Shown: positions 1-45,180, counted from the stretch's first letter. The stretch is DNA of 64,000 nucleotides from an uncultured Actinomycetota bacterium (GCA_963739645.1 CAVUBM010000080.1:16862-80861); one strand, 5' to 3'. The notes: generated from the letters alone by a model not told the origin. A program made the numbers and translations.

Positions 1-248
1 ACGGCGGTGGCCCCGGCGGTCGCGGCATCCTGGGCGGCGGAGGCTGAACGGTGGGCGGCGCGGGCTCCTGCTGGGGCGGACCCGCGTCGGCGCGCGCGCG
101 CGGGGTGTACGCTCCCAGCGCACAGAGTGATGTTAAAGCGACGAGGTGGAAGTTTGTGAGGCGCATCGGCGTATCGCCGAACAAGATGCCGCCGCCGCGG
201 AGGTTGTCAAACCTCGCGCGCATTCTGAAGACGTCTTCATCGTGCTCC

Positions 249-397
249 CAGGGGGGCCTTCCCCCCCGCGGCTCGCTTGCGCGACCGCTCCACCCCTCCA
301 CCCCTCCGGGTGTTCCGCAGCGGCTCGGGTGTTCCGCAGCGGCTCGGGTGTTCCGCAGCGGCTCCCCTGCCGCCTTCGGCGGGCTCGCTCCGCTCGC
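249..397 (+). repeat. REP-like GC-rich intergenic element, copy A (lengthened by an internal 19-bp x3 tandem)
   Basis: CAGGGGGGCCTTCCCCCCCGCGGCTCGCTTGCGCGACCGCTCCACCCCTCC...GGGTGTTCCGCAGCGGCTCCCCTGCCGCCTTCGGCGGGCTCGCTCCGCTCGC. A near-identical reverse-complement copy lies at 3958-4058. Contains a GGGGGG-CCTT-CCCCCC hairpin. Sits just 3' of the minus-strand gene ending at 417. Confidence 0.8.
308..364 (+). repeat. Perfect 19-bp tandem triplication GGGTGTTCCGCAGCGGCTC inside REP-like copy A
   Basis: Three head-to-tail identical units read directly (308-326, 327-345, 346-364). Copy B at 3958-4058 has this unit only once. Confidence 0.9.
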
Positions 398-416
398 GGG
401 CGAGTGGAAGCTCCTT

Positions 417-1592
417 CTAATCTCGCCCGGCGTCGTGGATCGACGGAAGCCCGCCGTCCGCCAGTGGCATCGACTCGATCCACGCGCGAATCAGGCCCAC
501 GCCGTTCTGGTCGACGGTCTCCGTCGCGATGGGCGGCATCTGCGTCACGATGCCGCCGGGGCCGCGCCTCGAGATGCGGAGGAACATCTCGCTCTGGTCG
601 GGCTTACCCGGCTCGATGATGTGGAGGTCGGGGAGCACGCTGTTCGGCTGGAGCACCGCGGAGCGGAACGCCGTCGTGTGTTCCACCGTGTCGAGCGCGA
701 TCGTGCTCTCCCAGAGATCGAGCGACACGCGCACCGACACGCTCGAGTTCGGGTTGTGGCAGTGACCGCAGTTCGCGTGCAGGTAGCCGAGCGCCTTTTC
801 CGCGACCGGCGCGCCCGGGATCTGGAAGTTGCCCGCGGGTGGAAGCGTGAGCCGGTTCTCGCTTATCAGATCCGCGAGCTTCATTCCGGGCAGATCGTGC
901 GAGAGCTGGATCGCCGTCACGCCGAGCAGCTTGTCCGGCATGTTGCCGTGGCAAAAATTGCAGTCGCTCTGCTGCGGAATGTCGTGCGGGGTGCCATTGG
1001 CGTTCTGCACGCCGTCCGGCACGGCCAAAGCTTCGGTCTGCTCGTCGTTCCACTGGTAGGCGACCATCGTCCACTCGTCGTCGGCGACCTTGTGCAGGTA
1101 GCGGGTCTCGATCCGCTTTCCGTTCAGGGCGAAGTCCTTCCAGACCTTCGTGCCCACCGGGTACACCCAGAAATCCATGTCGCTCGTGTCGATGGTCTTG
1201 CCCGGCGGCAAATACACCCAGCGGTTCTTCGTCGCGCCGTCTGCCCAGAGGACGTACTTCGGCTGATAAGCGCGCACCCCCGGCGCCGGCGTTTCGTTCT
1301 TCATGTCCACGAAGAGGCCCGTCTCGGACAGCTTCGACGGAAAGCCGTCTACGGGTCCGCTGGCGTCCGGGACGGCGGCAGCGGCAGCATCCGCGTCCGC
1401 AGGAGGAGCTGAAGCGTCGCGGGGCAACGGAGCGGCGGCTCCATCCGACGCGAGAGCGCGGGCCTCCGCTCCCGCGTCGGTCGGCTTGACGACGGGCCCG
1501 CCCTTCGGCGCCGTTGAATCGGAGGAGCAAGCGGAGAGCCAGAGCACCCCGCTCATCAGGAATCCGTGGAGCGAGTGAGAGCGACCGAGCAC
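417..1592 (-). CDS. Lipoprotein with two heme-c binding motifs (CNFCH, CGHCH); function unknown
   Basis: 391-aa ORF. Signal peptide plus lipobox LWLSAC-SSD, an Ala/Asp-rich linker, and two CxxCH motifs. No internal frame breaks. Confidence 0.75.
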
Positions 1593-1623
1593 CGGTAACC
1601 GTTATCACGAATCGTGCAACCGC

Positions 1624-1647
1624 CGCGTCTTTCATGTATGAAGCGCG
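1624..1647. promoter_or_regulatory. Imperfect inverted repeat in the divergent promoter region of the two cytochrome genes
   Basis: CGCGTCTTTCAT-GT-ATGAAGCGCG (core TTCAT-GT-ATGAA is perfect). A second small hairpin, GCTCGG-ACAA-CCGAGC, lies at ~1657-1674. Confidence 0.35.
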
Positions 1648-1710
1648 TAGCGGGCACGGCTCGGACAACCGAGCTCGCGAGGGGTCTATTAGGTCCCGGG
1701 AACATCACTC

Positions 1711-2943
1711 ATGCGACGAAACTTCACTTGGACATCATTGGTCATTGGCGGCGTTGTCGCCGGCTTGCTTGCCAACGCGTGCAGCAGCGACAAGAAAGCG
1801 CCGGCGCCGAGCGACGGCGGAACGGGCGGCACGGCAGGCACGGGCACGGGCGGCGCCGGCACGGGCGGCGCGGGCACGGGCGGTACCGTGAATAACGGCG
1901 GCTCCGGAGGCGTTGGTGGCGGTGCAGCAGGTGCTGCGGGCGCTCCGACGGACGGCGGTGACGCGGGCGCGGTAGCGCTCTCGGCGTGCACCGGGGTCAC
2001 CGGAGTGACGGACTCGGTGAGCTGCGGTGAGTACATTGTTCAGCACATCGACGCTTGCGCGGACTGTCACTCGCCGCAGGGTGCGCAGGGCATCGATTAC
2101 TCGAAGGCGCTCCAGGGCAATCCGTCGTTCGCCGACCTGGACGGCATCCCCGGCAACGGCACGGGCAACGTTCCGACGCCGAACCTCACGCTGCTCAAGA
2201 CCGAGGGCTGGACCAAGGCGGACATCAAGGACGCCATCCTGAACGGCAAGCGGTCTGCCGCACGCAATGGCGGGATCTTCCCGATCATGCCGTACTTCGT
2301 GTTCCACAACATGTCGGACTCGGACGCGAACGCCGTGGTGGACTACATCTTCCAGCTCACGCCCATCGGGAACGAGATGACGGATCGGGAACCCCTGCCG
2401 ACTCCGATTTCGCTTTTGCCGCTGCCGATCGCGCCCTTCGATCCGAAGACGCTTCCGGACACCTCGTTGCCGAAAACGGACCCGAACTACGAGAAGGCCG
2501 TTCTCGGCAAGTACATGTCGAGCGAAGTCGGCATTTGCGTCGAGTGTCACAGCGAGCGCGTCCCGCAGACCCAAGCGCTGGACGTCACGAAGCTCTTCGC
2601 GGGCGGCGAGAGCTTCTTCATCGGCGGGCCGTTCGGCACCGTCACCTCCCTGAACATCACGCCCGATCAGTCGGGAATCAAAGGTTGGACCGCCGCGAAC
2701 GTCCAGGCGACGATCCTCACGGGTAAAGACAAGGCCGGCATGAGCCTTTGTCCGCCCATGCCGTTCGGTCCATTGGGCGCCTTCGGCGGCATGGATCCCG
2801 CGCAGGCTCTCGCCATCGGGTATTACCTGACGACGATCCCCGGCGTGAAGAACGGGCTCGCCGACGGCGGCACGTTCCCGATGTGCGTTCCGCCGAGCGG
2901 CCCCCCGCCCGGTGGCCCGGACGCCGGCGACGCGGGTCACTGA
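1711..2943 (+). CDS. Diheme c-type cytochrome lipoprotein
   Basis: 410-aa ORF. Lipobox LLANAC-SSD, a long Gly/Thr/Ala linker (GGTGGTAGTGTGGAGTGG...), and two CxxCH motifs (CADCH, CVECH). Confidence 0.8.
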   Translation: MRRNFTWTSLVIGGVVAGLLANACSSDKKAPAPSDGGTGGTAGTGTGGAGTGGAGTGGTVNNGGSGGVGGGAAGAAGAPTDGGDAGAVALSACTGVTGVTDSVSCGEYIVQHIDACADCHSPQGAQGIDYSKALQGNPSFADLDGIPGNGTGNVPTPNLTLLKTEGWTKADIKDAILNGKRSAARNGGIFPIMPYFVFHNMSDSDANAVVDYIFQLTPIGNEMTDREPLPTPISLLPLPIAPFDPKTLPDTSLPKTDPNYEKAVLGKYMSSEVGICVECHSERVPQTQALDVTKLFAGGESFFIGGPFGTVTSLNITPDQSGIKGWTAANVQATILTGKDKAGMSLCPPMPFGPLGAFGGMDPAQALAIGYYLTTIPGVKNGLADGGTFPMCVPPSGPPPGGPDAGDAGH

Positions 2944-2966
2944 GCTCCGGCTCGATCGAGTGTAGA

Positions 2967-3006
2967 GTGGTCTCCCTCGGCAAGGCCGGGGGAGACCACT
3001 TTTTTT
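2967..3006 (+). terminator. Rho-independent terminator
   Basis: GTGGTCTCCC-tcggcaaggccgg-GGGAGACCAC followed by TTTTTTT, 24 nt after the stop at 2943. Confidence 0.85.
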
Positions 3007-3034
3007 CAGGGCATCCGCAAGGAGCTGACGATCC

Positions 3035-3958
3035 ATGCCTGTTCCGATCGCTTCGGCCCTGGAGGCGCTGCTCGCCCGGGGCGCGCGTCAGGAAAATGAT
3101 CGCAGCGTGTTCGAGGGGGAAAGCCTGGTGCGCTCGGGGGAACGCTTGCCGCCGGGGCTCGAGCTCGAGTGGCTCGGGACGTCGGGGTTTCGCCTGTCGT
3201 ACGAGGGCCACGTCCTCCTCATCGATCCGTACGTGACCCGGCATGGCCTGCGAAAGACCCTGAGCCGTGCGCCGCTCCTGCCCGACGAGCACACGATCGC
3301 CGAGCGAGTTCCCGCCGCGGACGCGATCCTCGTCGGTCACACGCACTTCGATCACGCGCTCGACGTGCCGAAGATCGCGGCGATGCGTGGCAGCACCGTT
3401 TACGGTTCTTCCTCGCTGCGGCAGCTCATGCACGTGTATGGGCTTTCGGAGCGAGCGGTGGTCGTCGAGCCGGGGCGCGTCTACGTGATCGGGCCGTTCG
3501 AGGTGACGTTCGTCGAGTCCGTGCATTCCAAGCTCGTGCTGGGGCTCAAGGTGCTCCACGGCGGCGAGCTCTCGTGCGAGCACCTCGACGGCCTTCGCGG
3601 CTCGGCTTACCGCGCGGGACAGGTCTACGGGATCCACATCGCCGTCGCCGGAAAGACCTTCTATCACCAGGGCAGCGCCAACGTGCTCGACGACCGTGTC
3701 CGGCACCGAGGCGTGGACTATTTCCTCGTCGGCATCGCGGGGCGCGGCTTCACGCCGAAGTACGCGGAGCGGGTGCTCCGCCTCCTCGAGCCGCGACTCG
3801 TCATTCCGCATCACTTCGACGACTTCTTCCGTCCCGTCGGCGGGAAGATGGGATTTTCCCTCAACGTGAACCTGGGCGGCTTCTTCGACGAAGTCCGCGC
3901 CGTCTCGAGTGATTTCGCCGTGCGGACCCTCGCGCCGCTCGAGACCTGGGGGTCATAG
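3035..3958 (+). CDS. Metallo-beta-lactamase-fold hydrolase
   Basis: 307-aa ORF with an HxHxDH motif (VGHTHFDHALD). Intact frame. Confidence 0.75.
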   Translation: MPVPIASALEALLARGARQENDRSVFEGESLVRSGERLPPGLELEWLGTSGFRLSYEGHVLLIDPYVTRHGLRKTLSRAPLLPDEHTIAERVPAADAILVGHTHFDHALDVPKIAAMRGSTVYGSSSLRQLMHVYGLSERAVVVEPGRVYVIGPFEVTFVESVHSKLVLGLKVLHGGELSCEHLDGLRGSAYRAGQVYGIHIAVAGKTFYHQGSANVLDDRVRHRGVDYFLVGIAGRGFTPKYAERVLRLLEPRLVIPHHFDDFFRPVGGKMGFSLNVNLGGFFDEVRAVSSDFAVRTLAPLETWGS

Positions 3959-4058
3959 CGAGCGGAGCGAGCCCGCGAAGGCGGCAGGGGAGCCGCTGCG
4001 GAACACCCGGAGGGGTGGAGCGGTCGCGAAGCGAGCCGCGGGGGGCAAGGCCCCCCTG
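3958..4058 (-). repeat. REP-like GC-rich intergenic element, copy B (inverted relative to copy A)
   Basis: GCGAGCGGAGCGAGCCCGCGAAGGCGGCAGGGGAGCCGCTGCGGAACACCCGGAGGGGTGGAGCGGTCGCGAAGCGAGCCGCGGGGGGCAAGGCCCCCCTG is the reverse complement of copy A with a few substitutions. It starts at the stop codon of the MBL gene. Confidence 0.8.
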
Positions 4059-4152
4059 AGACACAATCCCCGCTTTTGTCGCCTTCGCCTCGAATGGCTG
4101 GAAAGGTCGACCGTCGAAGATTACCGTTCCGGTCGCCGAGGGGCGGCGAACC

Positions 4153-4613
4153 ATGTACGAATTGGAATTGATGCAGGGAAATCAACGCGACGCCGGGTCG
4201 TGTCTGGGACGTGCTCACGACTTTTCGCGACTACGACGAGTGGAATCCCGTCATCACGCGCATGCGCGGGACGCTCACGGCGGGTGCGCCCGTGTCGTTC
4301 GTGATCGCGGTCGGTGGGCGCGAGCTGAAGATCGCCGCAGAGATGGTCCGCGTCGAGCCGGGACTCGAATTGCGCTGGCGCGGGCCGACTTCGTGGCTCG
4401 TTCGCGCGGTTCCTTCAGGGTGAGCATTTCCTCCGCGTGGAACCGTCGGGCACCGCGGCGTCGCGCCTCGTCCACGGTGAGCGCTTCACGGGCGTGTCGC
4501 TGCCACTCATCTGGCGAAAGCTCCGAGGCGACCTCGAAGAGGCGTATGGCAAGATGAATCGCGCCGTGAAAAGCCGCGCGGAGTCGCTCTCGCAGGGGCC
4601 GCGCGCGGCATGA
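4153..4613 (+). pseudogene. SRPBCC (polyketide cyclase/START-like) family gene with two frame breaks as sequenced
   Basis: MYELEL (frame a), then EINATPGRVWDVLTTFRDYDEWNPVITRMRG...LRWRGPTSWL (frame b, in-frame TGA at 4421), then HFLRVEPSGTAASRLVHGERFTGVSLPLIWRKLRGDLEEAYGKMNRAVK (frame c). Ends in an ATGA overlap with the next gene. Confidence 0.7.
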
Positions 4614-5240
4614 GCGAGCGCCCCTTTCTCATCTACGGCGCGAGCGGTTTCACCGGAAAGCTCATCGCGACGCGCGCGAAGGAGCGCGGCCTCTCGCCGA
4701 TTCTCGCGGGGCGCAGCGCCTCGGCGATCGAACCGCTCGCCCGAGCGACTGCGATTTGCCAGTATCGCGTGTTCGGACTCGAGATCCGGAGACGATTCGA
4801 GCCGGGATTCGCGGCGCGGGGCTCGTCCTTCACTGTGCCGGGCCCTTCTCCGCGACGAGTCGACCGATGGTCGATGCGTGTCTCGCGGAGGGCGCGCACT
4901 ACCTCGACATCACCGGCGAGTACGGGGTCCTCGAGGCCGTGCTCGCGAGGGACGCGGAGGCACGCGCGGCCAGGGTCGTGCTGCTTCCGCGGTCGGGTTC
5001 GACGTGGTGCCGACGGATTGCATGGCATTGGCGCTCAAGAATGCGTTGCCCGGGGCCGTTACCTCGAACTCGCCTTCAGCGGCGGCACGCAGCCCAGTCC
5101 AGGAACGGCGAAGACGGCCGTGGAAGGGCTCCACCTGGGCGCATGGTTCGAAGGGATGGGAAGATCACGACGTTGAAGGCACCGCTGCACTCGGCGAGAT
5201 CCCGTTTGCGCACCGCGCCCAGTTCGGGATGTCGCAGCCG
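4610..5240 (+). pseudogene. Saccharopine dehydrogenase-like NAD(P)-binding protein; at least 5 frame breaks and 3'-truncated at the junction
   Basis: MSERPFLIYGASGFTGKLIATRAKERGLSPILAGR; then GAGLVLHCAGPFSATSRPMVDACLAEGAHYLDITGEYGVLEAV; then VGFDVVPTDCMALALKNALPGAV; then LELAFSGGTQPSPGTAKTAVEGL; then RDGKITTLKAPLHSA; then IPFAHRAQFGMSQP. These segments are spread over three frames. No stop and no C-terminal domain before homology ends at ~5240. Confidence 0.7.
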
Positions 5241-6640
5241 CGGGCCGTACCCGCACCGGTCCGGTATGCGGCCGGATCGGCGTGGAGGTGCACATCGCCG
5301 CGTCGGTCGTGGGGTCGTTCGAGCCGTTCAGACCCGGCGAGGTGACGTGGTCGTACCAGCCGTCGGAGTCGTCGTAGGCACGACGATGGCGGTGCTGGAC
5401 CAGTACTTCGACTTCTGGAGGGCGTTGATCTCGCTGACCAGGAAGTGCTGCTCGTCGATCGGGTCGGAGTAGGCGGCGTGGCCGTCCTGGTACTCGGCGG
5501 CCTTGAGGAAGCTGACCGCCGGGAGGTTGCCGGCGGCGAGCGCGGCGTTGAAGTCGGTCAGGTCGTACTTGTGGTTGGCCTGGTCGGTGTGCCCGATCGC
5601 GTCGACCGAGGACGGCGCCAGGTGGTGCGGGTTCGACGTCGACGCGTAGTACTCGAACGGGGAGTGGTGCGGGCTGTAGTCGACGACGGAGGCGCCGCCG
5701 ATGTTGGTGTGGGTCGCGCCGCAGACGGCGTACGTCCCGGCGCCGGCGTGCCCGTGGTGGGCTTGAAGCCGCCCTGGAACCAGCCCCAGGTGACGCCCTG
5801 GCGTTGAGCAGGTCACCGATGTTCTGCCCGCTGACGGCGGCGAGGTTGTTCGCGACGTGTGGTTCTTGTCCGAGCAGTCGTCGTAGGCCGGGTCGGGTCG
5901 TTGATGACCGTGCCGACGCCGTTCGCGTCCGGGGAGACGACGGCGTACGTGTCCGGCGTGGCCGCCTGCGCGCCGGTGAACGGGTCGACGGCGCGGACGC
6001 CGTGGGTCTGGCCGGAGACCAGGTTGAGCGCCCCGGGGTCGACGGGCCGAACGTGGATGCGAAGGAGTTGTCGGACATCGCGTACTGCTGCGCGTAGTTC
6101 CACAGCCCGGTGACGGTGTTGCCGTCGTAGTAGTCCATGGTCAGGCCGGGCGCGCCGTACAGGCCGGTGCAGGTGTCGACGCTGACGTTCTGGACGAACA
6201 GGTCGTTGCGCCGTTGTCCGCGGCCTTCTGCTCCGGCCCGTAGTTGTGGTTCTGGTCGCAGGTCAGCGCCTCGGACGGGCTCAGCCGGGTCGGCGGGTAG
6301 AGGTTCGGGTTGTTCGTCAGCAGGTGACCGGTGAGCAGGTTGTTCGCCTTCGGGGTGTTCGTGGCGGCGTGAACTTGGTGCCCGTCGGTGTTGGCCGCCT
6401 TCGGGTAGGTCCCGAAGTAGTGGTCGAAGGAGACGTTCTCGTCGAAGATCACGACGACGTGCTTGATCGGGGTGGTCGTCGGCGCCGGGAGCGGTTTGGA
6501 CAATGCGTTCGCAGTTCCGGCGCGACGGCAGACGCGGTGCCGGCACCCCCGAAGGCGATGATCGCAGGGCGGCTATGGCTGCGACCACCCGGCCCCTCGG
6601 CCCCGCCCGATGTGTCCCACCGCGGTGTCCTTTCGCTTTC
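5235..6640 (-). pseudogene. Phosphoesterase-family protein (phospholipase C / acid phosphatase AcpA-like); at least 6 frame breaks, C-terminus missing
   Basis: PIKHVVVIFDENVSFDHYFGTYP; DQNHNYGPEQKAADNG; NDLFVQNVSVDTCTGLYGAPGLTMDYYDGNTVTGLWNYAQQYAMSDNSFASTFGPSTPG; ALNLVSGQTHGV; VVDYSPHHSPFEYYASTSNPHHL...SFLKAAEYQDGHAAYSDPIDEQHFLVSEINALQKSKYW; YDDSDGWYDHV; CGYGPRL (reverse complement of 5235-5255). The segments lie in alternating frames. The N-terminal boundary is approximate. Confidence 0.7.
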
Positions 6641-6837
6641 GCCGATCCGGGCGGTGCGGCCGCCACCCGCCTCGATGCCTCGGGGCGGGGGACCCATCCC
6701 GGCGGCGTCGGACGTCGGGTGCGCCGTCCAGGTTGGCGCCGGGGTGGACGGGTGACGGCCGGGTGAACAACTCGCGTCGCAAACCAGTGCAGGCGGAGAG
6801 TTTGTCCGCTTCAACCGATTTCGAGGCGAGTGGGGTA

Positions 6838-8150
6838 TCAGGCCAGCAGCGCGCGGCGTACCAGTCGCTGGGCCCGGTGACGCCGGGCAGCGCGAAGAAG
6901 TAGCCGCCGCCGAACGGGCAGATGTAGTCGACGAGCGGTTCGTCGGCGAGCCGCGTCTGCACGGCTACGAACTGCCGGTCCAGGTCCTGCTGGTAGCAGG
7001 TGAAGATCAGCCCCATGTCGAGGTCGCCGACGGCGTCGATGCCGCGGTCGTAGTTGTAGCCGCGGCGCAGGATCCGGCTGGCGGCGGTCTGCGGCGGTCC
7101 GCGGGTTGGCCAGCCGGATGTGCGCAGTCGAGCGGGATGACGCGCGCCGTCCGGGTCGTGCCGCGTAGTCCGGGATGTCGAACTCGCCGTTGCCGTCGAG
7201 CGGAGCGCCGGTGTCCCGGCGCCGGCCGATCATGCGCTCCTGCTCGGTGATCGAGACCCGGTCCCAGAACTCGACGAGCATCCGGATCACCCGGATCACC
7301 TGGTAGCTGCCGCCCGCCGTCCAGGCGGGCTCGCCCGGCCGCCGGCCGTGACCCACACCAGCTGGTCCATCTGCGGCGGCGTCGCCGGCGTCCGGGTTGG
7401 CGATGCCGTCCTTGAACCCGAGCAGGTTGCGCGGCGTCCCGGCGGGCCGCGGCGGGCTGGCGAAGCCGTCGATCCGCCAGCGCACCTGCATGGCCGCCGC
7501 GGGTGTGCCGGGCGATGTCGCGCAGCGCGTGCAGGACGGTGTCGGTGCTGCCCGCGGCGAGCTGCAGGCTCAGGTCGCCGCCGCACTGGGCCGGGATCGA
7601 GGTCGTCGTCGGGGAACGCGTCCATCGTGCTCGAGCCGGGCGGGCTTGCGGCTGGCCAGGCCGTACCGCTCGTCGAACAGCGAGGCGCCCGACGCCCGAC
7701 GGTGACGGTGAGGCCGTCCGGGCACCACGACCGGCCCGAGCACGCCGGAGTCGGACGGCGGTCCGGTGATCCCGACCGGCGGCGGCGTGCCGCCCGCGGT
7801 CAGGAACCGGGCCCGGTCGGTGAGCGCCCGCAGCAGGTCGGTCAGCTCGCCGCGGTCGTGCGGCGGTCACGTCGAACGAGACGACGACGGCCTGCCGCTG
7901 CGGTGTCGGGCAGGATGCCCGCCTGGTGCGGACCGTGGAACGGCACCGCCGGCAGGCGGCCGGCTGCTGCGGCCGCGGCGGCCGTCGCCTCCGCTGGCGG
8001 GCGGGAGGCCCGCGGCGTATCCGGCGGCGCTGCAGCGGCGGCAGCGCCCGCGTACCCACGGTCGCCGCGCAGGAACGCCGGCGACCGGGTGCCAGCGCGC
8101 TGGCGAGCTGCCGCGCATCGGACGACCTGCGGGTGCTCCGGCGTCGTTCA
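6838..8150 (-). pseudogene. efeB: Dyp-type peroxidase / deferrochelatase EfeB, many frame breaks as sequenced
   Basis: VPFHGPHQAGILPDTPQRQAVVVSFDV; [16 protein letters not shown]; [14 protein letters not shown]...[13 protein letters not shown]; [39 protein letters not shown]; [11 protein letters not shown]; [64 protein letters not shown]. The segments alternate between frames. Confidence 0.75.
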
Positions 8151-9386
8151 TCAGAGCTGCTCCTCGGCTCGAAGATGACGGCGATCGGCGCGAGGACCTG
8201 CAGCGCCTGCTCGCGGCCGAGTCGATCTGCTCGCCGCTGAGCGGTGCCGAGCGTCGCTGACGGGCGTCCAGCCGCCGTCGGGCCGTTGCTCGGCGCCTCG
8301 ACCAGCCGCTGCAGCCGGTCCAGCCAGGTGTAGACGGCGGGAGAGCCCGGTGTACGCGGGTCACCAGCAGCGGCTGCAGGATGGTGCAGCAGCTCCCGGG
8401 TGCCGGTGATGTTGGCGAGCGGTGGTCGCGAGCGTCGTGCCGCTGCCGTAGTCGTCGTGCCCGGTGAGCTGGAACTGCAGCGCGTTCTCCAGGATCTCGT
8501 GGGTGCGCAGGCCGAGGTCGCGCAGGTCGACTTCCTGCATGTGCCGGGAACGCGGCCTGCAGGCCGCTTGACGTGGCCGAGCAGCGTGCGCTGGCCTGGT
8601 CGAGCTGGGCGGCGGACTGGCCGTGCCACAGGCCGTACTCGACCCGGTAGAAGCCGGTGAAGCCGGGATCGTTCACGCCGCCGGGCAGCCCGTCGGGGCG
8701 GCCGTCGATCTCGTCGTCGAAGTCGCCGAACGTCCCGTAGGCGGCGCCGAGCCGCTCGTAGGTCAGGTGCGCGGTCAGCCAGTCCGTCTTGGCCTGCGGC
8801 CAGGTCGCCGTGCCGGACGTCCGCGTCCAGCCTGGCGGTCTGGGTCTCGAGTCGCGCGCAGGCCGACGGTGACGTAGGCGTGGTACACCATGGACGGCGC
8901 GAGCATGTCGTTGTTCGTGACCGGCACGATGCCCGGCTCGCCCTTGACGTGCCCGGGAACCTTGACCGCCGGCCCGCTGAACGGGTCGATGTCGTCGATC
9001 ACGCACCGGAAGGCGTAGGTGCCTGAGCCGAGGCTGACAGCCATGGTGCTGGTGGTGCCAGCGCCGATGCCGTCGAGCGCGCCGTAGATCGCGTAGGTCT
9101 TCGGGTTGACCAGGTAGACCTCGGCGGCGGCGCTGGCCTCGTTGTGGATGCGGAACGTCCGCAGCCCTGGTGCCGCCTGCCAGCGGCCGCAGGCCCCGGT
9201 GGAGACCGTGATCACGCTGCCCGCGGCCCCGGCCGGGTGCGCCGAGCAGGCGGCCAGCACACCGGCGGCCACCAGGCCGGCGGTGAGCCGGGACGCGCGG
9301 TGCGTTAAGGCCGGGAACCGGTGATGGGATGCGCAGGCAGCCGGCTCGCGAGCGGCTCCCGACCTAGCAATCACCGGCGTCCTCAT
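8150..9386 (-). pseudogene. efeO: Iron uptake component EfeO (cupredoxin-like N-domain plus imelysin/M75 domain) lipoprotein, several frame breaks
   Basis: N-terminal lipobox LAACS and cupredoxin-like TFRIHNEASAAAEVYLVNP...GTYAFRCVIDD. Imelysin part WPQAKTDWLTAHLTYERLGAAYGTFGDFDDEIDGRPDGLPGGVNDPGFTGFYRVEYGLWHG. The inferred stop overlaps the efeB ATG (CTGATG). Confidence 0.7.
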
Positions 9387-9550
9387 TGATGGAAGGCTGG
9401 CGCAGAACCCACGAGGACAGACTAGGGATCCACTGCCTCGCTGCGGAATATACTCGCGCGATCCTGCCCAACATTCACGTATCGCTCTCCCGGCGTTCGC
9501 CGCCGCGCCACCCGCGGCGGCGCGCGGGAACCCGCGTCTAAGCTCAGCCC

Positions 9551-11295
9551 ATGACGCGGGCCAACGAGGACATCGCGGCGCTGCTCGGGGAGTACTCCGA
9601 CCTGCTGCTGATCACCGGCGGCGACGCGTTCCGGGCGCGCATCTACGAGCGGGCGGCCCGGGCCGTGGCCGGCCATTCCGGAGATGTCGGGCAGCTGGAC
9701 GCCGCCGGGCTGCGGCAGATACCCGGCGTGGGCAAGTCGATCGCCGAGAAGATCACGGAGTACCGGGAGACCGGCACGATCCGGGCCGTCGAGGAGCTGC
9801 GCGCCGACGTGCCCGGCCGGGGTGCGGGAGCTGACCAGGATCCCGGCGCTCGGGCCCGAAGCGGGCCATGCAGCTCTGCCGCGATCTGCAGATCAGCTCG
9901 GTAGACGAGCTCACCGCCGCCATCAAGGACGGCAAGCTGCGCGACCTCAAGGGCTTCGGGCCGAAGAGCGAGGACCGGATCCTGCACGGCATCGAGATCA
10001 TGGAGCAGGCCGGCCAGCGCGTGCCGCTGAACGTGGCGATGGACACGGCCACGGCCATGGTCGCGGCCATCGGCTCGGTGCCGGGCTGCGTGCGCTGCGC
10101 GTACGCGGGCTCGCTGCGCCGGATGCGGGAGACCATCGGCGACGTCGACATCCTCGCCGCGGCTCGGGAGGCCAGCGACGCGCGCCCGCTGATGGCCGCG
10201 TTCACGGCGCTGCCCGACGTGGATCACGTGATCGCGTCGGGTGACACGAAGACGTCCATCCGCACCGGCCGTGGGCTGCAGGTCGACCTGCGGGTGGTAC
10301 CGCTGGACGCGTGGGGCGCCGCGCTGCAGTACTTCACCGGCTCCCAGGCGCACAACGTGCGCACCCGCGAGATCGCGGTCCGGATGAAGCTGAAGCTGTC
10401 CGAGTACGGCCTGTTCGACGTGGCCTCCGGCGAGCTGATCGTGTCCCGGACCGAGGAGGAGGTGTACCGCAGGCTCGGCATGTCCTGGATCCCGCCGGAG
10501 CTGCGGGAGGACACCGGCGAGATCCAGGCCGCGATCCGGGGCGAGCTCCCGGGCCTGGTGACCGGCGATGACATCCGCGGCGACCTGCACACGCATACCG
10601 ATCTCACCGACGGGGTGGCCCCGCTGGAGGACATGGTGGCGACCGCGGCGGCCCGCGGCTACGCCTACTACGCGGTCACCGACCACGCGCCGGACCTCGT
10701 CATGCAGCGGATGACCAGCGAGAAGATGCTCGCGCAGCGGGAGGAGGTCCGCGCGCTCGGCGCCCGGCTCGCGGCCGCGGCCACACCGATGACCCTGCTG
10801 CACGGCACCGAGCTGAACATCGCGCCGGACGGGACCGTGGACTGGCCGGCCGATTTCCTCGACGGCTTCGATCTCTGCGTGGCCTCGGTGCACTCGCACT
10901 TCGGCCAGCCGCGGCCGGAGATGACCCGCAGGTTCATCGCGGCCTGCGAGAACCCGCACGTGAACATCATCGGGCACCCCACGGCCCGCAAGATCGGCAA
11001 GCGCCCGCCGGTCGACGTCGACTTCGCCGAGCTGTTCCGGGCCTGCGCCAGGACCGGGACCGCCCTGGAGGTGAACGCCCACCCCGACCGGCTCGACCTG
11101 CCCGCCGATCACATCCGCGCCGCCAGGGACGCCGGGGTCAGGTTCGCCATCGACAGCGACGCGCACTCCACCGGGCACCTCGGCTACCTGCGCTACGGCG
11201 TCGGCACGGCGCGCCGCGGCTGGCTGAGGCCGGACGACGTCATCAACACCTGGCCGCTGGACCGGCTGCGGGAGTTCCTGCGCAAGCGCCGCTAG
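9551..11295 (+). CDS. polX: DNA polymerase X family protein with C-terminal PHP domain; two frame breaks near 9815-9865 as sequenced
   Basis: MTRANEDIAALLGEYSDLLLITGGDAFRARIYERAARAV...IPGVGKSIAEKI (frame 1); PAGVRELTRIPALGP (frame 2); MQLCRDLQISSVDEL...GSLRRMRETIGDVDIL...HTHTDLTDG...AIDSDAHS (frame 3, 475 aa uninterrupted). Confidence 0.85.
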
Positions 11296-12329
11296 CGAAG
11301 CTGCGCCCGGCCGGGCGGCTCGTCCCAGTCGGCCTGGTAGGGCTCGACCTCGATGCGCCACGGCGCGTCGTTGAAGAAGCTGGGCGACGGCCCGGAGCCG
11401 AACCGGGCGAACGCCGTGAAGTCCGTGGTCTCGCGGAACGCGGGCTGCTGGTAGAGATCACGGGCGTAACCCCAGAGCGCGGGGAAGTCCACCAGCCGCC
11501 GCTCGCTGATCTTCCCGAGCGGGTTGTACCCGAGGTCGAACCGGGCCAGGGTGGGCCACAGCCGCACGTCGGCCTCGGTCACCCCGGCGCCGAACAGGTA
11601 GCGCTGCCCGGCCAGCCGCTCGTCGAGGACGGTCAGGGTGCCGGTCAGCCGGTGCCGCAGCTGGGTGTACTCGGCCTCGGTCGTGGCGCCCGCGACCCGG
11701 TATGTCCCGTTGTTGACGGTCTCGTACACCCGCTCGTTCATGGCGTCGATATCGGCGCGCAGCTCCGGCGGGTACAGGTCGGGCGACGGCGTGGCCCACG
11801 CCCCGAACTGGGTACCCAGGTCGATCGTGATGTCCGGGAAGTTGTTGCTGACCAGCCTGCCGGCCTGACGGTCCCAGAGCGCAGGCACGGAGACATGCCC
11901 GTCGTAGCCGGGCTCGGTGGCCTCGTACGCCTCGGCCAGCAGCGTGAAGCCGTTGACCGGGTCGGCGCCGCGCCGTTCCCGGAACGCCCAGCCGCGCCCG
12001 TCCCGCACGTCGTCGACGTAGGAGAGCGACACCACGTCGTCGAGGCCCTTCAGCTTCCTGACGATCGCGGTCCGCTGCGCCCACGGGCAGCCCCAGGCGA
12101 TGTACAGGTGATAGCGGCCGGGCTCGGCGCGGTAGCCGCTGGAACCGTCAGCCGTGATCCGTCCCTGGAACCGGTAGCGCGGGCGCTCGAATGAGCTGCC
12201 GTGGTTGAAGCCCCGGCCCTCCCCGTACTGCCCGTACCGGTCATAGTCCACCGGGCTGGCGTACCTCGGGGCCTGCCCGCCCGCGGCGGTGTGCCCGTCT
12301 GCCCCTGCCTGTCCTGCCGTCTGGGCCAT
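11292..12329 (-). CDS. Xi-class glutathione transferase / glutathionyl-hydroquinone reductase (YqjG/ECM4-like)
   Basis: RYHLYIAWGCPWAQRTAIVRKLKGL (family Cys-Pro-Trp-Ala motif); VSVPALWDRQ...VSNNFPDI; YRVAGATTEAEY. Start taken at MAQTAG (12329); the ORF stays open up to 12500. Confidence 0.8.
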   Translation of the reverse strand: MAQTAGQAGADGHTAAGGQAPRYASPVDYDRYGQYGEGRGFNHGSSFERPRYRFQGRITADGSSGYRAEPGRYHLYIAWGCPWAQRTAIVRKLKGLDDVVSLSYVDDVRDGRGWAFRERRGADPVNGFTLLAEAYEATEPGYDGHVSVPALWDRQAGRLVSNNFPDITIDLGTQFGAWATPSPDLYPPELRADIDAMNERVYETVNNGTYRVAGATTEAEYTQLRHRLTGTLTVLDERLAGQRYLFGAGVTEADVRLWPTLARFDLGYNPLGKISERRLVDFPALWGYARDLYQQPAFRETTDFTAFARFGSGPSPSFFNDAPWRIEVEPYQADWDEPPGRAQLR

Positions 12330-12438
12330 CGCGCTGCCCTCGCATTCTGCGACGTTGCCGGTTACCGCCATCATCACATTCCGCGCGCGCCGGGCCGGAG
12401 CCGCCCGGAGCCGCGCTGGGGTTACCGCGCCGCGGTTA

Positions 12439-13431
12439 TCACGTCCGGCCGGGCCAGCGGCAGGACCCGGGAGCGTTCGCGGCCCAGTGCGGAGCACCAC
12501 CGTCCGCCCACCGCCGCAGGTTCTCGGCGAATATCTCGCCGGTCCGCCGGAACATCAGGTCGGTCAGCCCGCCGGCGTGCGGGGTGGCGATGACCGCCGG
12601 ATGGTCCAGCAGGGCGGAGTCAGGGTCGGCGGGCTCGCGGGCGAACACGTCGAGCCCGGCCCCGGCCACCTGGCCGGCCTGCAGGGCCGCCAGCAGGGCG
12701 TCTTCGTCCACCAGGCCGCCGCGGGCCACGTTGACGAACAGCGCGCCTGGCTTCATCGCCGCGAACGCCTCCGCGCCGAACATCCCGGCGGTGCCGTCGT
12801 CGAGCATCGCGCAGCAGACCACCGCGTCGGCCTGGGCCAGCAGCCCGGTCAGCTGATCCGGCGCGGCGACCCGCTCCACGCCGGGCGGCCCGCCGCGCTC
12901 GGGATGCGCCCGCACCCCGAGCAGCCGGGTGCCGAACGGCGCCAGCCTGCGGGCCACGGCCGCGCCGATGGAGCCGAGGCCGACGATGAGCACGGTGCTG
13001 CCGACCAGCGACCCGCCGGTCGGCCGCTGTTCCCAGCGCCGGGCCAGGAGCGCGTCCCTGGCCTCATCGAACCGGCGGGCCAGGGCCAGCAGGAACAGCA
13101 CGGCGAGCTCGGCCACGCTGTCGGCGTTGCCCCCGGCGTCGCCCGGGACCCGCGCCACCCAGACGCCCAGCTCGGTCGCGCGGGTGATGTCGACGCTTTC
13201 CAGGCCCACCCCGAACTGCTGCACCAGCCCGAATGTCCCGGCCTCCAGCACGGCCTTGTCGATCCTGGCGCCGAACGGGCACACCGCGGCGACGCCGTCG
13301 AGATGGTCGGCGATGTCCCGCGGCGGGCTGACGAGGATCTCCCACCCGGGCAGCAGCCCGGCCAGATCGGTCCAGCCGAGCTCGGCGGTGTAGCGCTCCC
13401 GGCCGAACAGCACCCGGCGCCGGGCGGTCAC
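12439..13431 (-). CDS. D-isomer-specific 2-hydroxyacid dehydrogenase family protein
   Basis: 330-aa ORF. NAD-binding VLIVGLGSIGAAVARRL; FVNVARGGLVDEDAL; VIATPHAGG. Confidence 0.8.
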   Translation of the reverse strand: MTARRRVLFGRERYTAELGWTDLAGLLPGWEILVSPPRDIADHLDGVAAVCPFGARIDKAVLEAGTFGLVQQFGVGLESVDITRATELGVWVARVPGDAGGNADSVAELAVLFLLALARRFDEARDALLARRWEQRPTGGSLVGSTVLIVGLGSIGAAVARRLAPFGTRLLGVRAHPERGGPPGVERVAAPDQLTGLLAQADAVVCCAMLDDGTAGMFGAEAFAAMKPGALFVNVARGGLVDEDALLAALQAGQVAGAGLDVFAREPADPDSALLDHPAVIATPHAGGLTDLMFRRTGEIFAENLRRWADGGAPHWAANAPGSCRWPGRT

Positions 13432-13438
13432 GGCGCTG

Positions 13439-14263
13439 TCACGGCAGGGACGCGAGCAGTTCTCGCACCGGCTTGCGCCGGCCAGCGTAGAACGGGATCT
13501 CGACGCGGGTGTGCAGCCTGGCCTGCGCGCCGCGCAGATGGCGCATGAGGTCCACGATCCGGTGCAGCTCGTCGGCCTCGAACGCGAGCATCCACTCGTA
13601 GTCGTTCAGCGCGAAGCAGGCGACCGTGTTGGCCCGGACGTCCGGGTACTCCCTGGCCATCATCCCGTGCTCGGCGAGCAGGGCCCGGCGTTCCTCGGGG
13701 TCGAGCAGGTACCACTCATAGGACCGGACGAACGGGTAGACGCTCACATAGGCGCGGGGCTCCTCCTCGGCCAGGAACGCCGGGACATGGCCCTTGTTGA
13801 ACTCCGCGGGCCGGTGCAGCGCCATCGCCGACCAGACGGGCTCGCTGGCCCGGCCGAGCCCGGTCCGCCGGAACCGGGCGTACATCTCCTGCAGGTCATC
13901 GGATGACGGCGCGACCCACCAGAACATGAAGTCGGCGTCGGCCCGCAGACCCTGCAGGTCGTAGCAGCCGCGGGTCACGACGCCCTTGCCCGCGGCCTGC
14001 TGGCACAGCTCGCTGACCTCGGCGGCGAGACCAGGCCGGCCGGACTTCGTCTGCTCCCCGGCGGCCTCGAGCGCGCCCGGGCCGGTGACCCGGAAGACCG
14101 ACCACATCGTGTAGCGGATCAGCTCGTTCAGGTCCCGCGCCTTGGGCCGCTGCCCTTCCGGGTGGCGCTCCTCGGTCTTGCCGGGCCGGTGCCCGGCGTC
14201 GTTCCCAGCCATGTCGTTATTGTCCCATCGGAATCTGGTCCTTCGGTCCCCCGCTCGGCTCAT
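13439..14263 (-). CDS. hemQ: Coproheme decarboxylase (hydrogen peroxide-dependent heme synthase, chlorite-dismutase family)
   Basis: [11 protein letters not shown]; [29 protein letters not shown]; [34 protein letters not shown]. An alternative start MAGNDAG lies at 14212. Confidence 0.85.
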
Positions 14264-14297: not shown

Positions 14298-15791
14298 TTA
14301 CCAGGCGCCGCGCCGCCGGGCGTCGGCGGGCCCGGCCTGGCGGGTGGCCAGGAAGGCGAGCACCTGGTCCGCGGCCCGCCGGGCCGAGGCGATGCAGGCC
14401 GGGATGCCGATCCCGTCGTAGGCCGCCCCGCAGACCGCGAGGCCGGGCAGGTTCGCGACCCCGGACCGGACCCGCGCGACGCGGTCCAGGTGGCCCACCG
14501 CGTACTGCGGCAGCCCGCCGCCCCACCGGCTGACCCGCACGTCAGCGGGAACGCCGCGCACTCCGGTCGCGTCCGCCAGGTCGGCAGCGGCCAGCCGGGC
14601 CAGCTCGCTGTCGTCCCGCTGCAGCAGGGCCTCCTCGCCCACCCGGCCCACGGAGCACCGCACGATGTCCAGGGCGGCGCCGTCGGCCCGCAGGTGCGGC
14701 CACTTCACCGTGCTGAACGTGACGGCCTTGACTACCCGGCCGTCGACCGCGGGGACCAGGTAGCCGCTGCCCTGCGGCGGATGCGGGAACGCGTCACGCG
14801 GGAAGGCCACCGTGACGATCGCCATACTCGCGTATTCGATCTCGCCGAGCGCAGCCGCGGCCGCCGCGGCCGCCGGCAGGCCGGCCAGCAGCCTGCTGGC
14901 CGGACGGGCGGGCACGGCGAGGATGACCGCGTCGGCGTCCAGCCGTTCCGGGGCCCGGGTCGGGCCGATGGTCAGCCGCCAGCCCGGTCCCCGCCCATCT
15001 CCCCGTCCCCCGGCACCGTCCCCGGTCACCGTGCGGGCGAGCTCCCGGGTCATCGCGTTGGTCCGCACCGTCGCGCCGGACGCGGCGGCGATCGCGGGCG
15101 GCAGCGTGCCCAGGCCGCCCGACAGCGTGGTGAACACGGGCGTGGCCGGGCGCGGCGCATCCGGGGCGGGCAGCAGCGATGCCGCCGCCGCGGTGAGGGA
15201 GCGGTGCTGCCGCGAGGCCTGCGCCAGCCCGGGGAGGGTGGCCTCGGCGGACAGCTCGTCGGACCGGCCCGCGTAGACCCCGCCGAGCAGCGGATCGACC
15301 AGCCGGTCCACGAGCTCCTGGCCGAACCTCGCCCCGACCAGGCTGGCCACCGTCACGTCACCGTCCCGCGGGGTTGGCGGCAGCTGGAGATCTTCGCGGG
15401 CCCTGGCCAGCCCCGCCGGGGACAGGATCCCGGAGGTCTCCAGCTCACCCAGGTCCCCGGGTACGCCCATGAACTGGCGTTTCGGCAGCGGGCGCAGCTG
15501 TCCGCGGGTCCAGATGGCCGCGGCGGTGGTGCCGGCCGGCACCAGCTGGCCGGCCAGTCCGACGGCGTCGATCAAATCGAGCCCCTCGGGGCGGCGGGCG
15601 AGCAGGGCCTCAGCGCCCGCGTCGACGTCGATCCCAGCGATCTCGGAAACCGAGAGCTTGCCGCCGAGCCGTGGCGAGCCCTCGAGCACGGTGACGTCCG
15701 CGCCCTGGTCACGGAGGAAGAATGCCGCGGCGAGCCCGGAGATGCCGCCGCCCACGATCGCGACGGCCGGCCGCTGGGATGGTGCATGCAC
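14298..15791 (-). CDS. hemY: Protoporphyrinogen/coproporphyrinogen III oxidase (FAD)
   Basis: 497-aa [40 protein letters not shown] dinucleotide-binding N-terminus. Adjacent to hemQ, as in the coproporphyrin-dependent pathway. Confidence 0.85.
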
Positions 15792-15900
15792 CTGTCTACT
15801 GTGCCCTACCGGGATGCGTGATCACCGCGGGCCCGTCCGCTATCGGACCCCCACCCGCAGCGATCACACTGATCAGAGTCGGGACACGGCCGGCGAAGAC

Positions 15901-17713
15901 TCAGCCGTGCCTGCTGTTCCCGCCATTCCTGGTGGCGTTGCCGCCGTTGCTGTGACCGAGTTCAGCGAACGGGAACGCGCGGTGGCGGCGGGGCGGGATC
16001 AGGAAGTTCTGCCGCCGCGTCGCGGTGATGAACCGCTCCAGGCCGTTGTCGTCCGGGTCCACGCCGAACTCCTTCTGCAGATCAAGCGAGGCCTGGTTGG
16101 TCCGCATGGTCGCGAAGAAATCGGCCGACGGTACGAACACCGTGAACTGGAGCTTCGCCTGCTCGGTCCCGTCGGGCACATCCATGCCGTCGAAGCCCGG
16201 CCCGTCCATCCGCAGGTGGATCGGCGCTCCGGCGGCGGTGCGGGATGAGCGCTGCAGGCGTGGAAATGTGGCCCATCCGGTGCTCTGGCTTGCCGGTGGC
16301 CGGGTCGGGCAGCGTGCCGATGCCCTCGGCGCTCCGCTGCGCGTCGTCGAAGCCCTTGAACTCGTTCTGCAGGAACGAAGGGCCGCCGCCGTTGACGAAC
16401 TGGTTGGCCACGCCCATGGATGGCGGCGGGTCGGCCCGGAACATGTACTGGACCCGTTCCAGGTACGTCCCGTCGTCGCCCGGGACGTTGGCCACGTCCA
16501 GGTCGAAGAACTGGATCATGTCCAGGATGTCGTGCGACAGGTGCTGCATCGACCCGAGGTCGAAGTAGTCACCTGGCTCGGCGGAGGTGAGGTCGATCCC
16601 GCCGCCGCCCACGAAGGTGACGTTCTGCGCGGGTGCGCTGGCGTTCACCTGCTGGTCGGCGAACCCCATCCACATCGGGGACTGCGGGTTCACGAACGAG
16701 GCGAAGGGCAGGTGGTTGGTGTCCGCCACGTTGCGCGGCAGGCCCTGCTGGACGAACATCACCCGGGCGCTGGTGAACGTCAGCCCCGTGCTCAGGCTGG
16801 GCGACGGGACGTGCTCCCCGCCGAGCCGGTTGCTGCCGCCCAGGAACGCCATCACATCCCACAGGTTGTCCACGTTGTCACTGCGCAGCGTGAACAGCAT
16901 GTCGTTCTGCTCGATCCGGACCGGGACGTTGAACCTCACCTTGGTGATGCCGGGGTTGGCCGGGCTCACATCGGTGGGCGCTGGTACCGCCTCCTCCAGG
17001 ACGAACCGGCTGTTGTCGGAGGCCAGGCGTGGCACAAGCGTGTTGAACATCCAGCTGGGGAACCGGTTGAAGTACGGCAGGCCGTAGGCGACGAACGTGA
17101 ACACACCCTGCGCCGCGAACGGGTAGACCTCCTCGATCCGGTCCAGGGCGTCGGCGAGCTGGCCCTGGTCGTCCTGGGTCGGGGTGGAGCCGAGCCGGGC
17201 CGGCGCGAACAGCGTGTAGACCGGCGGGAACGAGACCACGACGCCGTCGATGGTCACGGCCGGGGACGCGAACGCGGACAGGTCGAACTGGATGTCCGAC
17301 AGGGTCGCGGTCACCGCCTGGGCGCCGTGCCCATGCGCCGGGTCGACTGCGAGCCGCACCGGCACCGAGGCGAGATGCCGCATCCCCTCCAGCCCGGCGA
17401 ACGCGGCGGCGAGACCGCCCCCGGTGAGCAGAAGCTTGCGGCGGGACACGCTGCGCTCTGAGCCAGGATCGGGCTGCGGGTCGGCGTCGGCCTGGTGCCG
17501 GGGTCCGGTCGGCACATGATGCGTCTCGGCCCGGCGCCCGCCGCGGGACTCTGGCTGCTTGCGCGGGGCCGCGTGCTGCGGTTCGAACCAGTCCCGGGCG
17601 GACTCACCGGCGTTCTGCCGGGAGTCGTCCCGGCCGCCTTCACCGTCGGCAGCCCGCTTGGTACCTCGGCGTTTCTTGGTGCTCCGGTGTTCAGAACCCG
17701 TGGAATGGACCAT
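15901..17713 (-). CDS. Tat-signal secreted protein with DyP-like C-terminal features; one frame break near 16258 as sequenced
   Basis: Twin-arginine motif SRRKLLLTGGGLAAAFAG. The long ORF 16082-17713 joins 15901-16209 via ...PEHRMGHIS / LQRSSRTAAGAPIHLRMDGPGFDG..., which resembles the DyP proximal-His block (compare efe[10 protein letters not shown]...ILRRGYNY). The start is uncertain: ~90 charged residues precede the Tat motif. Confidence 0.55.
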
Positions 17714-17824
17714 GACGGCCTCCAGGAGGCGTGAGAAGAGTGAGGCGAGAGTGGCGACCGAGGCGGGGTCACGGTCTCGGGGCCAGCACGGAGGAACGGG
17801 GGACCTCCGCGCCCGCGGATCACA

Positions 17825-18559
17825 CTAGGACCGCCAGTCACTCCTGGACAGGGACGAGTACCCCTCGGGAGACGGACGCCCCTTGGGGGGTCCGGCCGGG
17901 GCCGATCCGGCCCCGGGCAGCAGGCCGAAGGCATCGGCCACGGCCAGCGCGCCTGACCTGTTGCGCACGCCGAGCTTGCGGAACATGCGGGTCTGGACGT
18001 TCTCCACGGTCTTCGGTGCGATCCCCAGCACCCGGGCGGTCTGCCGGATCGAATGGCCGCGGGACAGGGAGCGCAGGATGTCGCTCTCCCGCGCGGTCAG
18101 CTCGGGCAGCTCGAGCCTGCCCGGCGCCCGCTCATCCCAGCGGGCGCGCACCGCACCGATCAGCGGCCGCATCGGGCTCGAGTCCACCACCAGGTACCCC
18201 TGGCCGACCATACGCAGGACGGACAGGAAATGGTCATCGATACGCTCCGCCGACACCAGTGAGGCGGCCCCGCTGGCGAGCGCCTCGGCGAGCTCGGGCG
18301 GATCGAGAGGCTTGCTGTGCACGAGTATGGCCGGGACACCGAGCTCAGCCACCAGGTCCCAGTCCCGTGATTCTGGGTCGACGAGCACAACCATGATCGG
18401 GCCACGGTGCCAGCGGGCCCAGTGCGTATCCGCCACCGGGCCGGGCTCCCGCACCAGGACAAACGGCAGCGAGCTGCGGACCAGGGCCGCCACAATCTGC
18501 TCGAGGGCCGGGTTGGGCTGCCCGGACACCACCGCCAGCGCCACCGAGTCGGCGTCCAT
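17825..18559 (-). CDS. LuxR-family regulator with a degenerate receiver-like N-domain
   Basis: C-terminal HTH LTARESDILRSLSRGHSIRQTARVLGIAPKTVENVQTRMFRKLGV. The N-domain lacks the acidic DD pair (AVVSGQ). Confidence 0.7.
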   Translation of the reverse strand: MDADSVALAVVSGQPNPALEQIVAALVRSSLPFVLVREPGPVADTHWARWHRGPIMVVLVDPESRDWDLVAELGVPAILVHSKPLDPPELAEALASGAASLVSAERIDDHFLSVLRMVGQGYLVVDSSPMRPLIGAVRARWDERAPGRLELPELTARESDILRSLSRGHSIRQTARVLGIAPKTVENVQTRMFRKLGVRNRSGALAVADAFGLLPGAGSAPAGPPKGRPSPEGYSSLSRSDWRS

Positions 18560-19193
18560 GGGCTGCCGCCGTCGCGGCGGCCGGAGCGGCGCTGCGGTCG
18601 AGCATTCCCATCGAGGCCGCCTTGGCGACCGCGTGCACGCTGCTGCTCACGTCCAGCTTCGCGTAGACGCGGCGCTTGAGGTTCTCCACCGTCAACGGGC
18701 TGATCTTCAGCAAGGCCGCGATCTCGGCCACGCCGTGGCCCGACCCGGTGAGCACGACAAGCTCGAGCTCACGGTCGGTCAGGGAGCCGGTGACGTCCTT
18801 GGCGTGCTTGCCCTTCCTGCGGCGCAGCAGGGCCATGACGGCAGCCAGGCCGTGCGACTCGGGAACGAGTGACGCCACGCCCGCGCGGCAGGCCGCGGCC
18901 AGCTCCTGCTCGGACGCATCCCGGTAGGTCACGATCACGTTCACCTCGGGGAAGCGCCGGGTGAGCGCACCGACCCGCGCCGCGATCTCGCCCAGCCGCT
19001 GGCCCGCGTCGAGGATCACGACGTCAGGGCGCCGCAGCTCACACAGATCAAATACAGCTTCCGGCTCGGCGACATTGCCGACCACGGTGACGTCCGGCCG
19101 CACGGCCAGACAGGTGGACAGAGTGTCGCGGAGCAGCCGGCGCGGCGACTGCACGGCTACCCTGACGGTTTCGCGAGCGGGGGACGCGACCAT
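18345..19193 (-). CDS. LuxR-family regulator with an atypical receiver domain; 3' end uncertain
   Basis: MVASPARETVRVAVQSPRRLL...PDVVILDAG...; HTH LTDRELELVVLTGSGHGVAEIAALLKISPLTVENLKRRVYAKLDV. After ...AASMGMLD the frame stays open ~80 codons across the next gene's start, which suggests a lost stop, a frame break or a fusion. Confidence 0.6.
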   Translation of the reverse strand: MVASPARETVRVAVQSPRRLLRDTLSTCLAVRPDVTVVGNVAEPEAVFDLCELRRPDVVILDAGQRLGEIAARVGALTRRFPEVNVIVTYRDASEQELAAACRAGVASLVPESHGLAAVMALLRRRKGKHAKDVTGSLTDRELELVVLTGSGHGVAEIAALLKISPLTVENLKRRVYAKLDVSSSVHAVAKAASMGMLDRSAAPAAATAAAHGRRLGGAGGGVRAAQPGPRADCGGPGPQLAAVCPGAGARPGGGYALGPLAPWPDHGCARRPRITGLGPGG

Positions 19194-21721: not shown

Positions 21722-21865
21722 AACAGTGATCTTTCCACACGGCCGGCTGCTAACCGGCGGCGGCATTTCCGTGAAAGCACCATCGTGACACGCCGCCTCA
21801 GGTCCACGGCACCGACCCGGTGGCATGCCAGCATCTTGCTGAGCCCAGCGGCGAGGAGGTTGGTG

Positions 21866-40211: not shown

Positions 40212-40257
40212 GCCGGGCAAGTCTGAATGGCGCACCCAAAGACGCTACCGTTGCCAG

Positions 40258-42386: not shown

Positions 42387-45180
<2,794 letters not shown>

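Follow-up and report, generated by a model that had tools for sequence, protein, structure and literature searches.

A probable assembly chimera of Polyangiaceae-like and actinomycete DNA in a deposited contig

We analysed a join in a 64,000-nucleotide stretch of DNA from an uncultured Actinomycetota bacterium (GCA_963739645.1, CAVUBM010000080.1:16862-80861), here called the window, with positions counted from its first letter. At 5234|5235 a saccharopine-dehydrogenase-like gene resembling those of Polyangiaceae (Myxococcota) abuts a phosphoesterase gene of actinomycete type, and both are cut. The join is very probably an assembly chimera in the deposited contig, which one or very few reads would have bridged. 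As a feature it is almost certainly an artefact of assembly, without biological interest. All lines of homology and composition switch together at a single blunt point that interrupts two genes, and this point lies in a zone of near-raw long-read indels, which favours a chimera. An earlier note on this DNA had proposed a chimeric join of myxobacteria-like and actinomycete sequence, with two unrelated truncated genes abutting at about 5235-5241. This proposal is supported by homology, by composition, by the end of the alignment to the nearest relative and by the indel zone, and the joint can now be given exactly.

The joint and the DNA on its two sides

The joint (5234..5235, no strand) was placed by base-by-base comparison with L004, the nearest relative of the right side, and with two homologues of the left side, L084 and L002. 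The left homologues match the window through ...TTCGGGATGTCG to 5234. Past this point they run on as ATMCCNTGGGGCGAT (IPWGD) and the window departs from them; the natural continuation of the left gene at the joint in L002 is ...ATGTCGATCCCCTGGGGCGAT.... From 5235 rightward the window equals L004 base for base, beginning CAGCCGCGGGCC / CAGCCGCGGGCCGTACCCGCACCGGTCCGGT. Left of the equivalent of 5235, L004 carries the remainder of its own phosphoesterase gene (...CCGCTCCTGGTGATCTCC... on the coding strand), and its natural continuation at the joint is ...CGGCTGCCGCTCCTGGTGATC.... In a separate blastn search of L004 against the whole window, the alignment ran from 15264 down to 5234 and ended there. 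The joint is blunt, with 0-1 nt common to both sides, rather than the up to ~6 nt of shared sequence allowed for in the earlier note.

Two convergent genes are cut at this point, each without its 3' part. On the left is a saccharopine-dehydrogenase-like gene (Sacchrp_dh_NADP-type, PF03435; 4610..5234, plus strand), which retains residues 1 to about 208 of about 352. It could be traced over several frame changes to ...IPFAHRAQFGMS. The window covers no more than residues 1-210 of its homologues, proteins of 352-354 aa, in agreement with the suggestion that this protein is cut mid-way. The truncation was thus correctly recognised in the earlier note, but the 'QP' read there after FGMS is a chance continuation outside the left gene. 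On the right is a phospholipase C / phosphoesterase gene (5235..6697, minus strand; PF04185 profile positions 1-310 of 356), with residues 1-490 of 570. It ends ...DRCGYGPRL, which corresponds to residue 490 of the 570-aa L004 orthologue. Truncation at CGYGPRL had been reported correctly, but the loss amounts to the last 80-86 codons and not to roughly 100 residues. The missing C-terminal parts of the two genes were found nowhere in the 64,000 nt of the window, and a local inversion or rearrangement was rejected on this ground.

No mark of a mobile element was found at the joint. A tRNA scan of 1-12000 was empty, an Rfam scan gave no family at the joint, and no terminator or promoter matched there. 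Direct repeats around 5234 were only short and at chance level, none of them marking the end of an element. The domains of the five left genes included no integrase, transposase or recombinase, and the repeats at the joint gave no insertion sequence (IS) ends. Neither an att target nor a target-site duplication was found at the joint, only one border of the left block lying within the window. The absence of a terminator, repeat, att-like site or IS end, as the earlier note had it, was therefore upheld by the tRNA, terminator and repeat searches. Direct reading of the sequence revealed no adapter remnant, the two homologies abutting directly, and the window contains no N characters. The exact junction 50-mer had no match in a collection of one genome per GTDB species and the exact junction 30-mer none in JGI metagenome contigs, although absence from either is weak evidence.

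The left block points to the Polyangiaceae. The saccharopine-dehydrogenase-like gene is 72-74% identical to two homologues, P0001 and P0002, and the named sources among its best matches are Polyangiaceae metagenome-assembled genomes (MAGs), at 63-68% identity. A second left gene, coding for a haem lipoprotein of 391 aa, has named matches to MAGs of Polyangiaceae or Myxococcales at 51-57%, so that these names were obtained for two independent left genes. The order of an SRPBCC gene followed by the saccharopine-dehydrogenase-like gene is the same in three metagenome contigs, L002, L003 and L084.

The right side is actinomycete. Phosphoesterase matches were to Actinomycetota, at 70-81%. A scan with the family X DNA polymerase (polX) gave 80 actinomycete loci (Streptosporangiaceae MAGs, Actinomadura, Spirillospora and similar), the closest being L004 (MAG MFD04463.bin.1.235), with 94% protein identity in this polymerase. 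None of the 80 loci carries SRPBCC or any of the three intact left genes, and a Sacchrp_dh homologue was present once, as a distant match in L080 (34% over 149 aa). No homologue of a left-side protein was found in the right 58.8 kb of the window. Several of the actinomycete genes named in the earlier note were present on the right (a protoporphyrinogen-oxidase-type Amino_oxidase, rnd, ppk1, mutT, dxs and hemE). The taxonomic check proposed there gave Polyangiaceae/Myxococcales on the left and Actinomycetota with Streptosporangiaceae/Actinomadura relatives on the right.

Composition changes at the same place. The tetranucleotide profile of 1-5000 correlates with that of 5301-64000 (58.7 kb) at 0.856, against 0.96-0.99 for every 5-kb window right of the joint; such a profile had been proposed as a check in the earlier note. 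We also trained trinucleotide models on 1-4100 and 10000-64000 and applied them to the held-out segment 4100-10000. The single best change point was 5209, 25 nt from the joint. The G+C fraction at third codon positions is 0.85-0.87 in the intact left genes and mostly 0.90-0.97 in the right genes, in line with the higher third-position A/T noticed earlier on the left.

A zone of single-base frameshifts

The joint is bracketed by an indel-dense zone of 5.7 kb (4177..9852, no strand), where six genes carry about 46 single-base frameshifts. From about 4.2 to 9.85 kb, a codon-position GC plot and a six-frame segmentation show a switch of coding frame at intervals of 50-400 nt, a behaviour confined to this part of the window. 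The frameshifts were placed with a purpose-written frameshift-aware protein-to-DNA alignment to homologues. Plain tblastn was unable to localise them, because high-GC DNA has few out-of-frame stops. Indels occupy about 0.8% of positions in 4177-9852 and about 0.004% elsewhere, an enrichment of about 200-fold. The earlier note had not described these many 1-nt frameshifts, which affect the cut genes and the genes around them as far as 4177 and 9852.

On the left, the zone takes in the SRPBCC / Polyketide_cyc2 gene (Pfam; 4153..4586, plus strand), with two frameshifts at 4177 and 4403, and the saccharopine-dehydrogenase-like gene, with 5-6. On the right it takes in the phosphoesterase gene, with 9-10, nearly all deletions; an EfeB-type Dyp peroxidase gene (efeB; 6841..8141, minus strand), with about 14; an EfeO-type gene (efeO, Peptidase_M75; 8162..9405, minus strand), with about 13; and the first 300 nt of polX (9551..11295, plus strand), with two, at 9812 and 9852. 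Four of these six genes are intact in L004 and two in metagenome relatives; efeB and efeO are there intact open reading frames (ORFs) of 449 and 417 aa in L004. The closest homologues (L004, P0122, P0001, P0002) aligned to these genes without any in-frame stop. The full polX gene shares 94% identity with L004 and nonetheless has two frameshifts, 40 nt apart. When the phosphoesterase gene was aligned to another relative, L001, the gaps were single-base deletions in the window, several in short homopolymers, with the exception of one 3-nt in-frame difference.

The zone covers DNA of both origins. Its left edge lies within foreign DNA that is otherwise intact and its right edge within the highly conserved polX. 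This fits a technical origin linked to the joint and is at odds with gene decay.

In the remaining 54 kb of the window, where every same-strand frame switch was examined, two frameshifts were found. The aconitase gene (minus strand) is split by one at about 43840-43990, with Aconitase profile positions 4-316 in the frame 43195-45288 and positions 323-463 plus Aconitase_C in the frame 42390-44024; a leftover sequencing error is the probable cause. hemE (URO-D, minus strand) is split by one at about 21320-21400, with the N-terminus in the frame 21302-21928 and profile positions 134-345 in 20634-21560. As both are housekeeping genes, the assembly carries residual indel errors.

Part of the zone is also a variable locus. 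The order efeO, efeB, phosphoesterase is common to L001 and L004, and all three genes are intact in L004. In DNA identity the phosphoesterase gene stands at 86.5% to L001 and 76.7% to L004; efeB, efeO and polX are nearest to L004, at 82%, 78% and 94%. From 5235 to about 9500 the window diverges from L004 by 15-24%, and right of about 9.5 kb by 3-8%. Judged from these identities, the efeO-efeB-phosphoesterase locus is mosaic among relatives, with the phosphoesterase nearest L001 and its neighbours nearest L004. Substitution errors of raw reads were considered as the source of the higher divergence in 5235-9500 and rejected: since the phosphoesterase matches L001 at 86.5% with gaps of a single base in all cases but one, the divergence is allelic. 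A second structural break at about 9.5-9.85 kb was likewise rejected, the alignment to L004 being unbroken from 6834 to 11295.

Origin of the join

Three left and six right proteins of the window each occur, in a protein collection, on one contig and no other; this contig has 129,912 bp and is in both NCBI and ENA. The join therefore predates the cutting of the window. The Microflora Danica MAGs, the group of the closest relatives, are metaFlye assemblies of Nanopore reads only, polished with one round of Medaka (PMC12313526), and the window would presumably share this origin. Ligation-based Nanopore libraries give chimeric reads, at least 1.7% in one study (PMC5600009; likewise PMC13141652). 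For false chimeras, an open-pore or smoothed segment of the raw signal is described (PMC13141652).

In the process that we consider very likely, at least 5.2 kb of Polyangiaceae-like DNA would have been joined end to end with the chromosome of an uncultured Streptosporangiales-like actinomycete. The well-covered parts of the two parent contigs would end near 4.2 kb (Polyangiaceae-like) and near 9.85 kb (actinomycete), the latter end sitting at the edge of the mosaic locus described above. A chimeric long read, or very few of them, may have bridged the two ends, either as a ligation chimera or as two molecules read as one, and the polisher would have been left with almost no depth over 4177-9852.

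Several points weigh against this explanation. The artefact is deduced from the sequence, and the platform and assembler from those of relatives. A blunt join with so little homology (0-1 nt) would also be left by end-joining repair. The segment from 5235 to about 9500 is partly a naturally variable locus, as its greater distance from L004 indicates, and this complicates the argument from coverage. Finally, one-base deletions account for all frameshifts in 4782-6516, and one-base insertions predominate in 4177-4403 and 6856-9852. Such an uneven pattern is not predicted by a simple model of one bridging read; the sub-zones may reflect differing depths or consensus steps.

We weighed three other explanations. 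In the first, two contigs would have been set end to end without a gap marker during scaffolding, gap-closing or submission, both with poor ends and with no spanning read. Error density does climb from either side toward the joint, a pattern of contig ends with low coverage, and the join is blunt and free of N characters. Public gene calls nevertheless put left and right proteins on the one 129,912-bp contig, and the records of the relatives are plain metaFlye contigs without scaffolding (PMC12313526), so we regard this as improbable. It is an equally artificial origin, departing from a chimera bridged by reads only in the step responsible.

A real and very recent transfer between phyla is very improbable. 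Here a Polyangiaceae fragment would have been captured by illegitimate (end-joining) recombination, destroying the phosphoesterase gene, in a rare carrier sequenced at low depth; equally improbable is its fuller form, in which a Streptosporangiales-like actinomycete would hold at least 5.2 kb of un-ameliorated DNA at a hypervariable efeOB-phosphoesterase locus. The blunt joint fits end joining, the efeOB-phosphoesterase region is indeed mosaic and variable, and both sides lie within one deposited contig. However, the left block keeps native Polyangiaceae composition, REP-like elements and intact lipoprotein genes of Gram-negative type, and the incoming fragment itself breaks off mid-gene, with no integrase, tRNA, IS end or direct repeat. 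Low depth would affect only about 1-4.6 kb to each side of the joint, between clean flanks, which is unexpected if one organism carried all of this DNA. The failure to find the joint in the two public collections counts weakly in the same direction. The 80 relatives also speak against a transfer, since they lack the three intact left genes and SRPBCC nearby and offer only the distant L080 match to Sacchrp_dh.

Lowest of all we rate a decaying pseudogene block in a real genome, with the joint as the scar of an old deletion or rearrangement; this is very improbable. Six neighbouring genes are disrupted, and phosphoesterase mismatches to L004 fall equally on all three codon positions, as decay would have it. 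The even spread is, however, explained by the phosphoesterase of the window being another allele, 86.5% identical to L001. The disruptions are frameshifts only, in-frame stops and larger deletions being absent from the alignments to the closest homologues, and two of them stand close together in the conserved polX. Decay would not halt at 4177 in foreign DNA whose other three genes are intact, and it leaves the switch of phylum unexplained.

The chimera that we favour has counterparts among known artefacts. Inter-genome chimeric contigs of long-read metagenomes, seeded by chimeric Nanopore reads, show the same abrupt switch of homology, taxonomy and composition, with genes cut mid-way, no mobile-element signatures and a poor local consensus around the breakpoint. 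The likeness extends to a complex soil-type source community where Polyangiaceae and actinomycetes both occur. The present joint differs in being seen at the level of the assembled bases and in having no adapter remnant. Contamination of MAGs by mis-binned contigs, of the type addressed by GUNC and CheckM, also places two phyla in one bin; here, in contrast, the fusion is inside one contig, and cleaning of the bin at contig level is ineffective where a split at 5234|5235 is required. A genomic island, or an insertion by illegitimate recombination, would similarly set a block of foreign composition beside core genes, in a place where relatives differ from one another. Unlike such an island, the block has no integrase, tRNA target, flanking repeats or IS ends, host and incoming genes are both truncated, the foreign DNA is un-ameliorated and the join coincides with a zone of sequencing errors.

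Consequences and further features of the window

The value of the finding is practical. The public 129,912-bp contig (NCBI/ENA) appears to fuse two phyla, which contig-level decontamination would miss, and it should be split at 5234|5235. Any inference of operon, synteny, horizontal gene transfer or taxonomy across this point would be false, as would a metabolic reconstruction crediting the actinomycete with lipoprotein cytochromes. Within 4177-9852, pseudogene calls for SRPBCC, Sacchrp_dh, phosphoesterase, efeB, efeO and the 5' end of polX would also be false. A burst of single-base frameshifts centred on a break in composition and taxonomy may serve as a diagnostic, a sequence-only flag for chimeras in Nanopore-only assemblies.

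Three genes in the left block are intact. The 391-aa lipoprotein ORF (417..1592, minus strand) has a lipobox, LSAC, two CxxCH haem motifs and no Pfam match; an identical protein is recorded with 379 aa on the deposited contig. It is followed by a 410-aa lipoprotein cytochrome c (1711..2943, plus strand; PF00034, PF13442) and a 307-aa metallo-beta-lactamase-fold protein (3035..3958, plus strand; PF13483, PF12706), both recorded on the same contig. The lipobox cytochromes announced in the earlier note were thus recovered, lipoboxes being read in the translations and cytochrome c domains being found in the second protein.

The REP-like elements mentioned there were also located. This intergenic element is about 130 nt long and occurs in two copies, both in the left block. 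Copy 1 (246..391, plus strand) contains the 19-nt unit CGGGTGTTCCGCAGCGGCTC three times in tandem at 307-364, and copy 2 (3976..4061, minus strand), inverted relative to copy 1, contains it once. No copy was found in 5235-64000 or in any of the 84 fetched loci.

Further observations concern the relatives and the right side. In L001, efeO (Peptidase_M75) and efeB (Dyp peroxidase) are called as one 865-aa product at 7365-9962, the middle of which aligns poorly; it may be a frameshift artefact of long-read assembly. L004 has extra segments of about 2.4 kb (11413-13836) and about 3.7 kb (14917-18613) relative to window positions 11295-11306 and 12388-12457, separating genes that lie next to each other in the window (polX / GST-like / 2-hydroxyacid dehydrogenase). 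At 40036-42351 (plus strand) the window has a 771-aa ORF that combines CM_2 (chorismate mutase), PDT (prephenate dehydratase) and DAHP synthase I; if the ORF is real, it would be a three-domain fusion of enzymes of the aromatic amino-acid pathway.

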